Source of the DNA: a phage
Sequence record: PZ445524.1
Length of the DNA: 64,000 nucleotides
Direction: 5' to 3' (one strand)
The notes under the pieces are model-generated. The model saw nothing but the letters and a program-made list of their open reading frames with translations, was not told the origin of the DNA and searched no databases. How positions within the stretch are numbered: the first letter of the stretch is position 1; every line of letters begins with the position of its first letter. Shown one piece after another: positions 10,421 to 14,661 of the stretch. Made by a program: the position numbers and the translations under genes.

Positions 10421-10699
10421 TCAAAATGTAATTTCTAACCAATCACCATCACGCTGATCACTATTGACTTTAAAGCTAAATCCTTCTTTTCTCAGCCAAT
10501 CACCAATTTCTTCAGTAATCAATTTATCACGAGCAATACAATAATAATTAAAATGTGTTTTACCTTGTTCAGCTGCTTTATTAGCAAGTTCCGAAAAATC
10601 TTTAATAAAACACTCTAGCTTAAACTGTTTACTTTTTAATGCTTTTTCGCGTAATTGATTAGCAAAAGATTCATTTTCATAAAGATCATACTGTTCCAT
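10421..10699 (-). CDS. hypothetical protein (T4 24.2 position)
   Basis: 92 aa ORF between rnlB and hoc. Confidence 0.7.
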   Translation of the reverse strand: MEQYDLYENESFANQLREKALKSKQFKLECFIKDFSELANKAAEQGKTHFNYYCIARDKLITEEIGDWLRKEGFSFKVNSDQRDGDWLEITF

Positions 10700-10901
10700 T
10701 TTTCACCTTTTTATTGATATGTCTTTTTCTATAGACAACTTTTTCTCGAGTTTCAAATTTATTCTTAGCAGTCATAGCTCGAGCCCATAATACAGCCACT
10801 TCTTTTGCCTGTAAGTTTAATTCACGAGCAATTTCAATGAATGACTTTCCAGACTCATGAAGAGTAAACACCACAACCTCAGTTCTCATAATCAATCTCA
10901 T
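10686..10901 (-). CDS. hypothetical protein (T4 24.3 position), possible helix-turn-helix
   Basis: 71 aa ORF; segment KSFIEIARELNLQAKEV resembles an HTH. Confidence 0.6.
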   Translation of the reverse strand: MRLIMRTEVVVFTLHESGKSFIEIARELNLQAKEVAVLWARAMTAKNKFETREKVVYRKRHINKKVKNGTV

Positions 10902-10960: not shown

Positions 10961-10985
10961 AATGAAGAAAGGGGCCGAAGCCCCT
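10961..10985 (-). terminator. intrinsic terminator after hoc
   Basis: GGGGC-TTCG-GCCCC hairpin followed by T-rich run on minus strand. Confidence 0.75.
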
Positions 10986-10990
10986 TATGA

Positions 10991-12409
10991 TTATGGATAG
11001 GTATAGATGATACCAGTTTCTAAAGCAGTTTTATGAATGATGTATCCATTACGCGATTCTTGGACATCAACTTCTGGATAATCTTTCATCATCTTCTGGA
11101 GAGTGTAACGATGCAAGTAGTACTTACTATCTGGATCGTCAGTTTTCCAATCTTTACCTTCTTCAGTCATTTTTTGGATTTCATCCATAACCCACCAACC
11201 GCACCAGATGTAAGCTGAGCTACGGTGTGGAAGAGGATGAACATAAGGTAATTCACCTTCTGGTTCTGGAGCAACTTTATCAGTTACCTGAACTTGACCT
11301 TCTGCCGTAATAGTTTTGCTATCATAATCAGTTGCTGTAACAGTTGCAGTAACTTCAATAGTTTGACTTCCAATAGATGAGGTATCAACGGTGTATACAT
11401 TAGTTGACCCTTCTACAGGAGAAGAATCTTTCTTCCATGAATACGCAATTTGCGCTTCTTCTGGAGCATTAGTGACATTAGCGGTAAATGTAGCCGAAGC
11501 ATCTTGTTGAACGTTAATAGAAGGAGGAGTCAATGTAACCTGTGGATTCATTGTCTTCTTATTAACCGTTAATGTTACTTCATTAGAAGTAACTTCCTTT
11601 TCATTGTAATTTTCAGCAGTTACTTGAGCTACACACTTGATTTTTTTAACTCCACTTGTAGTTGGAGTATAGCTAAATGTAGAGTTAGTTTCTCCACCAA
11701 CTTGTGAATCATCTACATACCACTGATACGTAGCAGACGCTCCATCAGGTTGAGAAGCTAAGGCAGCAGTAAATTGAACTGGGGTTCCAATTACTCCAGC
11801 TGAAGGACTATTAGGAGTTACTGCCAAGGTAGTCGTCTGTGTCTTTTTATTAACAGTCAGTGACACTTCATTAGAAGTAACTTCCTTTGCATCATAATCT
11901 GTCGCGGTTACTTGAGCCACACACTTAATTCTTTTTACCCCGCTTTCGGCAGGAGTGTAATTGAATGTAGCAGAAGTTGCTTCGCCCACAGGAGAACCGT
12001 CAACGTGCCATTGATACGTAGCAGATGCACCTGATGGCTGCGAAGCTAAAGTAGCGGTAAATTCAACAGCTGTTCCGATTACTCCTTCCGGAGGACTATC
12101 AGGAGTTACAGATAAAGTAGTTGTTTGTGTCTTATTTTGAACTGTGATAGTTGTAGTAGCTTCTGCTGTTTCAGCTTCAGCTTCTGGAACTGTATTTGTT
12201 GCAACTACTTTAATAGTCTTTTGACCGGCAGGTCCTTTTAGTACATAACTAAAAGTTGCTTCAGCTCCATCTTGTGGAACATCATCTACAGTCCAAGCAT
12301 ATGTAATAGGTCCATCTCCAGTTTGACCACTGGGTGTAGCAGTAAACTGCTGAGTCTGATCTATAACTCCAGTAGGTGTTTTAGGAGTTATATCAACTGT
12401 AAAAGCCAT
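10991..12409 (-). CDS. hoc: head outer capsid protein Hoc with four Ig-like domains
   Basis: 472 aa; N-terminus and C-terminal capsid-binding region match remembered T4 Hoc (376 aa), plus one extra 96-aa Ig-like unit. Confidence 0.9.
   Translation of the reverse strand: MAFTVDITPKTPTGVIDQTQQFTATPSGQTGDGPITYAWTVDDVPQDGAEATFSYVLKGPAGQKTIKVVATNTVPEAEAETAEATTTITVQNKTQTTTLSVTPDSPPEGVIGTAVEFTATLASQPSGASATYQWHVDGSPVGEATSATFNYTPAESGVKRIKCVAQVTATDYDAKEVTSNEVSLTVNKKTQTTTLAVTPNSPSAGVIGTPVQFTAALASQPDGASATYQWYVDDSQVGGETNSTFSYTPTTSGVKKIKCVAQVTAENYNEKEVTSNEVTLTVNKKTMNPQVTLTPPSINVQQDASATFTANVTNAPEEAQIAYSWKKDSSPVEGSTNVYTVDTSSIGSQTIEVTATVTATDYDSKTITAEGQVQVTDKVAPEPEGELPYVHPLPHRSSAYIWCGWWVMDEIQKMTEEGKDWKTDDPDSKYYLHRYTLQKMMKDYPEVDVQESRNGYIIHKTALETGIIYTYP
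11558..12133 (-). repeat. tandem duplication of a 288-bp Ig-like domain unit inside hoc
   Basis: aa 93-188 and 189-284 are about 80 percent identical (KTQTTTL...VKCVAQVTA...TLTVNK twice). Confidence 0.85.
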
Positions 12410-12418
12410 AAGTTATCC

Positions 12419-13099
12419 TTATTTTAATGTTACGAAAGAAGAATTGCGTGTTTCACGAATTAAAACTGATCCATCGCGATTAATGTAATAAATTAAGCTA
12501 AATAAAGTTTGGTGTGCTGACGCATGCTCAAAACTTGTTGGGTGAGATTTCCAATCCGGAGTTTCAGCAATCCATTGATAAATCCACCATGGAACAGTGC
12601 AGAATCCTGGATTTTTTCCAATCAGCTGAAGATTTGGGCTAAAGTTTTCCGGAAGAGTAAATACAGACGGCTTTTCAGATTCAATAATCTCAGCTACAGC
12701 CTGTTCAAACTTTTCTTCAACAAAGGGAGTATCTTCAATCAAAACTGAGGTATTTTCAGGAATTTTATCCGTTTCTACTACTTCAATTTTAATATCAGAT
12801 TTAACCGGAGAATCAATCAGAAGTGCTGCTTCTGGATTGACTTCTTCATCGTCATATTTTAATCCCTCTGCGGCATCAGCAGCATCAATTAAGTCTTTAA
12901 TAGATAACCCATCAGTCTCTGGCATAGGTTCACTAGCGAGCTTCTGGAGGGCTTCTTCAATATCAACAACGATATTATCAAAAGATTTATTCTTTTTGAC
13001 CTTTATACCAAACTGTTCAGCATATTCAGCTAATTTAGCTTTAGCTTCTTTGTTATCATCAAGAGCCTTCAGCTCTGCAATATAATCTTTATCTATCAT
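12419..13099 (-). CDS. inh: inhibitor of prohead protease Inh
   Basis: 226 aa, T4 Inh length and position after hoc. Confidence 0.85.
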   Translation of the reverse strand: MIDKDYIAELKALDDNKEAKAKLAEYAEQFGIKVKKNKSFDNIVVDIEEALQKLASEPMPETDGLSIKDLIDAADAAEGLKYDDEEVNPEAALLIDSPVKSDIKIEVVETDKIPENTSVLIEDTPFVEEKFEQAVAEIIESEKPSVFTLPENFSPNLQLIGKNPGFCTVPWWIYQWIAETPDWKSHPTSFEHASAHQTLFSLIYYINRDGSVLIRETRNSSFVTLK

Positions 13100-13112
13100 A
13101 ATATTTCCTCAG

Positions 13113-13120
13113 TATAAATA
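13113..13120 (+). promoter_or_regulatory. late promoter TATAAATA upstream of uvsW
   Basis: exact TATAAATA about 30 nt before ATG 13150. Confidence 0.7.
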
Positions 13121-13149
13121 TAGATATATTTATTACATGGTATTTAGAC

Positions 13150-14661
13150 ATGACTGACATTAAAGTACATTTTTATGATTTTAGTCACGTGAGAATTGAT
13201 TGTGAAGAAAGTACATTTCATGAACTCCGTGATTTCTTTAGCTTTGAAGCTGATGGGTATCGTTTTAATCCGAAATACAGATATGGCAACTGGGATGGAC
13301 GAATCCGTCTTTTAGATTATAATCGTCTTCTTCCATTCGGCTTAGTCGGGCAAATTAAAAAGTTCTGTGATAACTTTGGCTATAAAGCCTGGATTGACCC
13401 ACAAATTAACGAAAAAGAAGAATTATCAAGAAAAGATTTTGATGAATGGCTTTCTAAATTAGAAATCTATTCAGGAAATAAAAGAATTGAACCACACTGG
13501 TATCAAAAAGATGCAGTGTTCGAAGGATTAGTTAATCGTCGTAGAATTCTTAATCTTCCAACATCCGCTGGTAAATCGTTAATTCAAGCTTTGCTTGCGC
13601 GATATTATTTGGAAAATTATGAAGGTAAAATTCTTATCATTGTTCCAACAACTGCTTTAACAACTCAGATGGCTGATGACTTCGTTGACTATCGTTTATT
13701 CAGTCATGCAATGATAAAGAAAATTGGCGGCGGAGCATCAAAAGATGATAAATATAAAAATGATGCACCAGTCGTTGTTGGTACATGGCAAACTGTAGTT
13801 AAACAACCAAAAGAATGGTTCTCACAGTTTGGAATGATGATGAATGATGAATGTCATCTTGCTACAGGAAAAAGTATTTCATCCATCATATCAGGTTTAA
13901 ATAACTGCATGTTCAAATTCGGTTTGTCTGGTTCATTACGTGATGGCAAAGCCAATATCATGCAGTATGTTGGAATGTTTGGTGAAATATTTAAGCCAGT
14001 AACGACTTCTAAGTTAATGGAAGATGGACAAGTAACTGAGCTAAAAATTAATAGTATTTTTCTTCGCTATCCCGATGAGTTCACTACTAAATTAAAGGGA
14101 AAAACTTACCAAGAAGAAATAAAAATTATTACTGGGCTCAGTAAAAGAAATAAATGGATCGCTAAATTAGCTATTAAGCTTGCGCAAAAAGATGAAAACG
14201 CTTTTGTCATGTTTAAACATGTATCGCATGGTAAAGCTATTTTCGATTTAATTAAAAATGAATACGATAAAGTTTATTACGTATCAGGGGAAGTTGATAC
14301 CGAAACCCGCAACGTAATGAAAACCTTAGCTGAAAATGGTAAAGGAATAATTATAGTAGCGAGTTATGGTGTATTTTCTACTGGTATTTCAGTTAAAAAT
14401 CTGCATCATGTTGTTTTAGCGCACGGCGTTAAATCAAAAATCATTGTATTACAAACAATCGGTCGTGTATTACGTAAGCATGGTTCTAAAACAGTCGCAA
14501 CAGTCTGGGACCTCATAGATGATTGTGGTGTTAAGCCAAAATCTGCTAATACGAAAAAGAAATATGTTCATTTGAACTATCTTTTAAAACACGGCATTGA
14601 TCGTATTCAGCGCTACGCAGATGAAAAATTTAATTACGTAATGAAAACAGTTAATTTATAA
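13150..14661 (+). CDS. uvsW: UvsW RNA-DNA and DNA-DNA helicase (SF2)
   Basis: 503 aa; Walker A LPTSAGKS and DECH box; T4 UvsW length. Confidence 0.93.
   Translation: MTDIKVHFYDFSHVRIDCEESTFHELRDFFSFEADGYRFNPKYRYGNWDGRIRLLDYNRLLPFGLVGQIKKFCDNFGYKAWIDPQINEKEELSRKDFDEWLSKLEIYSGNKRIEPHWYQKDAVFEGLVNRRRILNLPTSAGKSLIQALLARYYLENYEGKILIIVPTTALTTQMADDFVDYRLFSHAMIKKIGGGASKDDKYKNDAPVVVGTWQTVVKQPKEWFSQFGMMMNDECHLATGKSISSIISGLNNCMFKFGLSGSLRDGKANIMQYVGMFGEIFKPVTTSKLMEDGQVTELKINSIFLRYPDEFTTKLKGKTYQEEIKIITGLSKRNKWIAKLAIKLAQKDENAFVMFKHVSHGKAIFDLIKNEYDKVYYVSGEVDTETRNVMKTLAENGKGIIIVASYGVFSTGISVKNLHHVVLAHGVKSKIIVLQTIGRVLRKHGSKTVATVWDLIDDCGVKPKSANTKKKYVHLNYLLKHGIDRIQRYADEKFNYVMKTVNL

Follow-up and report, generated by a model that had tools for sequence, protein, structure and literature searches.

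A Tequatrovirus hoc allele with two tandem domain-2 units: a predicted four-Ig fibre from an ancient duplication of a probably recombining module

Hoc is used as a display and vaccine scaffold on phage T4, and is a proposed mucus-adherence factor. In the account of Fokine, Rao and co-workers, 650 Hoc homologues combine a conserved capsid-binding domain with a variable string of Ig-like domains (PMC10385173), the maximum in that survey being the ten Ig domains of the Hoc of Serratia phage Muldoon (Fokine et al. 2023, PMC10385173). T4 Hoc is present at one molecule per gp23* hexamer and 155 per prolate head, forms a four-domain fibre of ~180 Å, and has a capsid-binding domain that was defined experimentally at its C terminus (PMC10385173). 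Fokine et al. also lay weight on the charge of Hoc and on its pH-dependent clustering (PMC10385173), and a role in charge-based dispersion has been proposed for the protein. Mucin binding has been described for PNJ-9 Hoc, which has two Ig-like domains and binds MUC2 via S183/L184/T185 of domain 2, and for PNJ-6 Hoc, in which the MUC2 contacts are E29/G33 in domain 1 (PMC11853027). The function of Hoc in relatives is treated in PMC11150434 and PMC9271167; a further paper, PMC10580926, proved to have no relevance to domain number. We found no explicit account of a series of one, two and three domain-2 units within Tequatrovirus in the portions of the literature that were searched.

We analysed a 64,000-nucleotide stretch of phage DNA (PZ445524.1; hereafter the window), in which hoc lies on the minus strand (10991..12409) and encodes, according to the list of open reading frames, 472 residues followed by a stop codon. 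The product matches PHROG 1149, 'Hoc-like head decoration' (E 1e-139), and, in a phmmer search of solved structures, T4 Hoc (5vf3_Z, 376 aa; E 2e-218). The earlier note on this DNA had set 472 aa here against 376 aa in T4, and both lengths were confirmed, from the open reading frame and from the T4 Hoc sequence respectively. The nearest genome over 25 kb is that of the Tequatrovirus e11/2 (vB_EcoM_112), at 97.8% identity, and by this measure the gene is a Tequatrovirus hoc. The gene order, in which inh is followed by hoc and then by homologues of 24.3, 24.2 and rnlB, with uvsW on the opposite strand, is the same in T4, in e11/2 and in RB27, a phage of the classic RB collection. Set beside the annotated genes of e11/2, T4 and RB27, the open reading frames of the window place the gene at the conserved genomic position expected of Hoc.

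The hoc start lies 9 nt past the inh stop and is preceded by a GGA ribosome-binding motif. At the other end of the gene, 5 nt past the hoc stop, we identified an intrinsic-terminator-like hairpin on the minus strand (10969..10986; AAGGGGC-TTCG-GCCCCTT, then a T-rich tail), and a terminator is annotated at the equivalent position in e11/2. No exact copy of the T4 late-promoter consensus, TATAAATA, was found on the minus strand in the interval separating hoc/inh from uvsW; only a 7/8 match to it, AATAAATA, occurs upstream of inh, for which we claim no promoter. The spacer between inh (12419-13099, minus) and uvsW (13150-14661, plus) is only 50 nt long (13100-13149), and segE, the GIY-YIG homing endonuclease gene found between inh and uvsW in T4, is missing in the window, e11/2 and RB27. 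The 24.3 homologue (10686-10901, minus) encodes 71 aa in the window and measures 216 nt in e11/2, compared with 171 nt for the annotated 24.3 of T4, a minor difference in length or start site.

In the phmmer alignment, the window protein matches T4 Hoc 1-106 with its own residues 1-106, and T4 Hoc 93-376 with its residues 189-472. The first Ig-like domain (aa 1-92; 12134..12409, minus strand, as are all the following) is identical to T4 domain 1 at 79 of 92 residues. It is followed by two units in codon register, which we term copy A (aa 93-188, Ig-like domain 2a; 11846..12133), absent from T4, and copy B (aa 189-284, Ig-like domain 2b; 11558..11845), equivalent to T4 domain 2. A fourth Ig-like domain (aa 285-380; 11270..11557), equivalent to T4 domain 3 and identical to it at 80 of 92 residues, leads into the capsid-binding domain at the C terminus and the stop codon (aa 381-472; 10991..11269), within which PHROG 21694 covers residues 408-472. 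The last 96 residues of the protein are identical to T4 Hoc 281-376 at 95 of 96 positions.

Copies A and B form a tandem array, reported by Tandem Repeats Finder at 11552-12133 (period 288, 2.0 copies, 76% matches, score 668), and a second repeat search of the window likewise found two copies of 288 nt, spaced 288 apart. The two copies are identical at 72 of 96 residues (75%) and at 215 of 288 nucleotides (74.7%), with no indels. The earlier note had placed tandem copies of about 80 percent identity at residues 93-188 and 189-284, spanning 11558-12133; the internal repeat was recovered in each self-comparison (Tandem Repeats Finder, the repeat search and the codon-register alignment) and its register was exactly as proposed, with the identity to be corrected to 75% at both the amino acid and the nucleotide level. 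In a control of 10,000 shuffles, nucleotide identity was 25.8 +/- 2.5% with a maximum of 36%, placing the real copies at z = 19, and the remaining pairs of Ig-like domains in the window Hoc are just 26-38% identical in amino acids, compared with 75% for A and B. The copies are adjacent, in frame and of equal length, and their edges coincide with domain boundaries (93-187 and 189-283 in the AlphaFold2 (AF2) model). The longest exact match between them, at the conserved end of the unit, is just 24 nt long, so that recombination between the copies in this phage should be infrequent.

PKD-type and Ig-type Pfam domains span both copies and the domain that follows, with PKD, PKD_3 and BiPBP_C above the curated cut-offs and Ig_3, Ig_2 and I-set below them. 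Copy A is matched by PKD and BiPBP_C, copy B by PKD (195-268), and the fourth Ig-like domain by Ig_3 and I-set (289-373, under the cut-offs). The AF2 model, built on 46 homologues and with a mean pLDDT of 83, contains four all-beta domains, at residues 1-91, 93-187, 189-283 and 285-378, in which the pLDDT of ten-residue blocks is 80-96: 81-93 in the first domain, 83-96 in copy A, 92-96 in copy B, and 88-94 in the fourth domain, dropping to 80 in its final block. A Foldseek search of the PDB returned strings of Ig domains, namely the N-terminal 4-Ig of Dscam, ICAM-5 D1-D4 and NCAM Ig1-3, and also RB49 Hoc (3shs, E 4e-11). The four confident beta domains and the Foldseek matches to Ig strings support the prediction that the window Hoc consists of four Ig-like beta-sandwich domains, then a capsid-binding domain; the proposal that a 288-bp duplication gives this Hoc four Ig-like domains is upheld by Pfam, PHROG, phmmer, AF2 and Foldseek together. 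The capsid-binding domain itself is poorly modelled (pLDDT 32-62) because the alignment columns there are almost invariant, and its attachment to the capsid is therefore predicted from the 95/96 identity to T4.

We investigated the distribution of this form of hoc among related phages. A megablast search of 50,697 GenBank phage records matched 657, and all of the best 40 of these 657 contain a full-length hoc of ~1419 bp at 93.8-95.7% identity. In a sample of 60 records spaced evenly along the ranking, 18 have matches spanning 1419-1420 bp and most of the others 1131 bp, the T4 type. A query spanning the copy junction gave a rougher estimate of 13-18 multi-copy records in 40, ambiguous in that half-matches of single-copy genes were joined and weak one-piece matches may represent the junction of domain 1 with a unit. 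From these rank-spaced samples, which are no full census, the two-unit allele appears to be present in roughly 30-45% of the ~650 related GenBank records. An additional scan of IMG/VR recovered 21 loci, mostly distant Hoc genes of 279-545 aa, and was unfit for a census. The hoc of RB27 is annotated, at 1419 nt. Hocs with four and with up to ten Ig domains have been described before, and by its occurrence in these records the window hoc is a common, long-sequenced allele, not a novel one.

At the protein level, in a search of 5.8 billion clusters, the best 120 fall by length into classes of 376 aa (79 clusters), 472 aa (29) and 568/570 aa (8), with a few of odd length, and within these 120 the 376-, 472- and 568-aa Hocs hold exactly one, two and three units in identical register. 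The comparison of Hoc length across relatives that had been suggested thus yields three classes, of 376, 472 and 568 aa, and this series, together with chimeric single units in relatives (see below), fits the suggestion that the repeat lends itself to expansion or contraction. The exact sequence of the window Hoc had no match in a collection of 15 billion proteins, the nearest cluster being 94% identical.

Some of the matching records show irregular hoc loci. In FriedrichMiescher (MZ501066.1), 'Hoc part 1' and 'part 2' are annotated over 1420 nt, with an apparent frameshift; one T2 record (PV958097.1) has three Hoc-like fragments over 1117 nt; and in KNP5 (KX452698.1) the hoc match is spread over 2072 nt, a possible insertion. 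The phage mobillu (L001, MN850622.1) is filed as a Mosigvirus, and its hoc is 93.7% identical to that of the window, with domain 1 at 98.9%, a sign either of hoc having been exchanged laterally or of a taxonomic oddity.

The units found in different phages are not all of one kind. T4 domain 2 is closer to copy B (89.9% of nucleotides, 86/96 aa) than to copy A (76.4% of nucleotides, 76/96 aa), and copy B is 95.8% identical in nucleotides to domain 2 of RB3. The Hoc of e11/2, by contrast, has 376 aa and a single unit that is 95.5% identical in nucleotides to copy A and 78.8% to copy B. The unit of e11/2 is thus A-type and that of T4 B-type, indicating that the middle domains of three-Ig Hocs are not equivalent. 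Nine genes were examined at the DNA level, and five multi-unit genes were entered into a comparison by unit position, which gave nucleotide identities of 86.6% between first units, 89.8% between second units and 76.5% between first and second units. Average-linkage clustering of the protein units produced three clusters: an A-type of the first units of two- and three-unit genes and 48 single units; a B-type of most second units and 27 single units; and a C-type of third units, with a small number of second units and 3 single units. As far as these alignments and clusters reach, the order of units is kept, first units clustering together and later units clustering together, with single units in either group.

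Of the 73 nucleotide differences between copies A and B, 44 are at third codon positions, and the Nei-Gojobori method gives pS 0.615, dS 1.29 (saturated), dN 0.149 and dN/dS 0.12. The saturated dS and the dN/dS of 0.12 indicate that the copies have long been maintained as constrained domains, and exclude a recent event. On these substitution estimates, the duplication is ancient and purifying selection has acted on both copies. We additionally considered a recent duplication private to this phage, which is ruled out by the saturated dS, by the grouping of units by position, and by the hundreds of records that share the array. As an ancient duplication common to hundreds of phages, including RB27, the array is no peculiarity of this genome.

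The four-Ig state could nonetheless be recent in this particular lineage, if copy B had been inserted beside copy A from a co-infecting phage of B-type or A-B type. The nearest genome, e11/2, carries A only, and the window hoc is a patchwork on a scale of ~300 bp, in which domain 1 is closer to mobillu (98.9% identical) than to e11/2 (96.0%), copy A is closer to e11/2 (95.5%) than to mobillu (86.5%), and copy B is 93.8% identical to mobillu, all of which would suit such an insertion. The loss of B from e11/2 by unequal crossover would, however, be an easier event that accounts for the same data from the two genomes compared, and the flanks are 96.0% and 97.4% identical to e11/2, with no sharp break around the insertion. 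We consider such a recent gain of copy B a genuine possibility, albeit not the probable course of events. The explanation that we favour overall, and hold to be very probably correct, is that the window carries a Tequatrovirus two-unit hoc allele, encoding a four-Ig fibre and derived from an ancient duplication, of a module whose number varies, likely by recombination.

Present-day phages vary in the number of modules, which is one, two or three. Under the favoured explanation, the likely cause is homologous recombination in which units pair out of register, together with exchange when phages co-infect a cell. The single units of relatives carry traces of this kind. An initial set of chimera markers, of 5 diagnostic positions only, was uninformative and was replaced by frequency-based painting, in which single units were painted with residues typical of the first or of the later units of arrays. 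Among the 81 single units painted, 35 are purely first-type, 9 purely later-type and 13 complex, and the chimeras comprise 19 with a first-type left and later-type right part and 5 with the reverse polarity. Of 86 array units, only 2 show the left-first/right-later pattern. The excess of 19 over 5 has a binomial p of 0.007, and the Fisher p is 3e-5, values to be read in light of the facts that cluster representatives are not phylogenetically independent and that the arrays themselves supplied the markers. This polarity is the expected trace of out-of-register crossing-over in an A-B array, and the chimeric single units suggest that unequal recombination has contracted arrays repeatedly.

In T4 (hoc at L004:1187-2318), nucleotides 1-72 of the unit are slightly nearer to first units (94 vs 90%) and nucleotides 73-216 are plainly second-type (97-99 vs 74-76%), a weak hint in the nucleotide pattern that the three-Ig hoc of T4 is the product of an unequal crossover in a two-unit array. 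T4 and other three-Ig forms may well represent a contracted state, and not the baseline. We tentatively extend this to a broader reading, to which we give a little less than an even chance: that the domain-2 module is a cassette of one to three copies in the fixed order A, B, C, which has repeatedly expanded and contracted out of register, with T4 Hoc as a contracted form. Under this cassette reading, the 'domain 2' of three-Ig Hocs would differ between phages, with type A in e11/2, type B in T4 and RB3, and type C in a few, and copy number would tune both the reach of the fibre and the number of its mucin-binding sites.

In the mechanism that we propose, the C-terminal domain of Hoc would attach at the centre of each hexamer of the major capsid protein, and the window Hoc would project four Ig-like domains, not three, because the 96-residue domain-2 module occurs as in-frame tandem copies, A then B. 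Extrapolating from T4, PNJ-6 and PNJ-9, the extra domain would lengthen the fibre, here of five domains, by about one Ig domain and, from published work, would add ~155 Ig domains per capsid; the surface motif of domain 2 for which binding of fucosylated MUC2 has been reported would be present a second time. The contact triplet of PNJ-9 corresponds to S183-L184-T185 in copy A (11855-11863, minus strand) and to T279-L280-T281 in copy B (11567-11575, minus strand). It sits in the best-conserved stretch of the unit, NEV[S/T]LTVNK, which also contains the 24-nt exact match between A and B, so that the triplet is present twice in the window Hoc; with the contact-bearing motif present twice, each fibre may plausibly offer a second, weak site for binding glycans. 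At the positions that contact MUC2 in PNJ-6, the window Hoc retains G33 and has Q instead of E at residue 29. By analogy with these phages, an effect of the extra domain on reach and on mucin binding is plausible.

The extra domain might instead be neutral padding, with a copy number that drifts and leaves adherence unchanged; the acidic charge of Hoc, controlling dispersion and aggregation, would then be its main means of action, and not specific binding. In the laboratory Hoc can be dispensed with, and Fokine et al. place emphasis on charge and on pH-dependent clustering (PMC10385173); every domain of the window Hoc is acidic, with a pI of 4.1-4.8 (4.5 for the whole protein), in keeping with the proposed role of Hoc in charge-based dispersion; and phages that are nearly identical carry one-, two- or three-unit forms. 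Against neutrality, the dN/dS of 0.12 between the copies indicates that each has long been kept as a folded, constrained domain, and domain 2 is the MUC2 binder in PNJ-9 (PMC11853027), its motif being SLT in copy A and the conservative TLT in copy B. We therefore regard neutral padding as unlikely, and continue to favour a four-Ig fibre maintained under constraint.

The hoc allele itself is annotated in RB27 and present in about a third of related public genomes, so that its discovery value is little. The modest added value of the present analysis lies in the proposed picture of a copy-number-variable domain-2 cassette, and in the point that the three-Ig form of T4 may be a contracted state. 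This bears on comparisons of 'domain 2' mutations or sites across T-even phages, in which three-Ig Hocs bear non-equivalent types of domain 2, and the natural one-, two- and three-unit alleles are potential isogenic, ready-made tests of fibre length and valency.

Compared with the closest known systems, the window Hoc shares with T4 Hoc the same gene at the same locus between inh and 24.3, a capsid-binding domain identical at 95 of 96 residues, and counterparts of T4 domains 1, 2 (copy B) and 3 that are 86-90% identical, and differs from it in having a further 96-aa unit, copy A, which lies between its domain 1 and the counterpart of T4 domain 2. The 472-aa Hocs of RB27, VEc74, mobillu and slur02 have the same A-B arrangement and register at 88-94% amino acid identity, and differ from the window Hoc by point differences only. 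A fault of assembly or sequencing, for instance a chimeric assembly of the hoc alleles of two co-infecting phages, is conceivable as a mis-join in a mixed sample in so far as the copies resemble different single-copy alleles (A that of e11/2, 95.5%; B that of RB3, 95.8%), but is ruled out for practical purposes by the 73 differences in 288 positions, which speak against an error of repeat collapse or expansion, by the intact frame with the copy junction exactly in register, and by the recurrence of A-B at the same length and register in many independently sequenced genomes (among them RB27, mobillu, VEc74, slur02 and an IMG/VR contig), so that the sequencing error the earlier note had named as a possible refutation was not borne out. 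The 568/570-aa Hocs of the Escherichia phages UGKSEcP1 and UGKSEcP2 contain the same unit in the same register and, unlike the window Hoc, have three units (A-B-C) and hence five Ig-like domains.

The window Hoc also conforms to the survey of Fokine et al. 2023, in combining a conserved capsid-binding domain with a variable number of Ig domains (PMC10385173, PMC11853027); the available parts of those two papers do not describe the series of one, two and three copies of domain 2 within Tequatrovirus. Outside this group, the Hocs of the Klebsiella phages PMBT63 (468 aa; PMC13435897, in which the extra domain relative to T4 is noted) and Marfa (471 aa) likewise consist of a capsid-binding domain and four Ig-like domains, and are only ~48-50% identical to the window Hoc. 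A further Hoc, L010, has the Marfa layout at 57% identity, and Klebsiella phages related to Marfa gave shorter matches of ~1076 bp. We identified in Marfa (MN044033.1, L011:601-2016) a tandem Ig duplication of residues 183-276 and 277-370, 78% identical, which involves a different Ig domain from that of the window and is thus an independent event. This parallel indicates that changes in domain number by tandem duplication are recurrent in the Hoc family.
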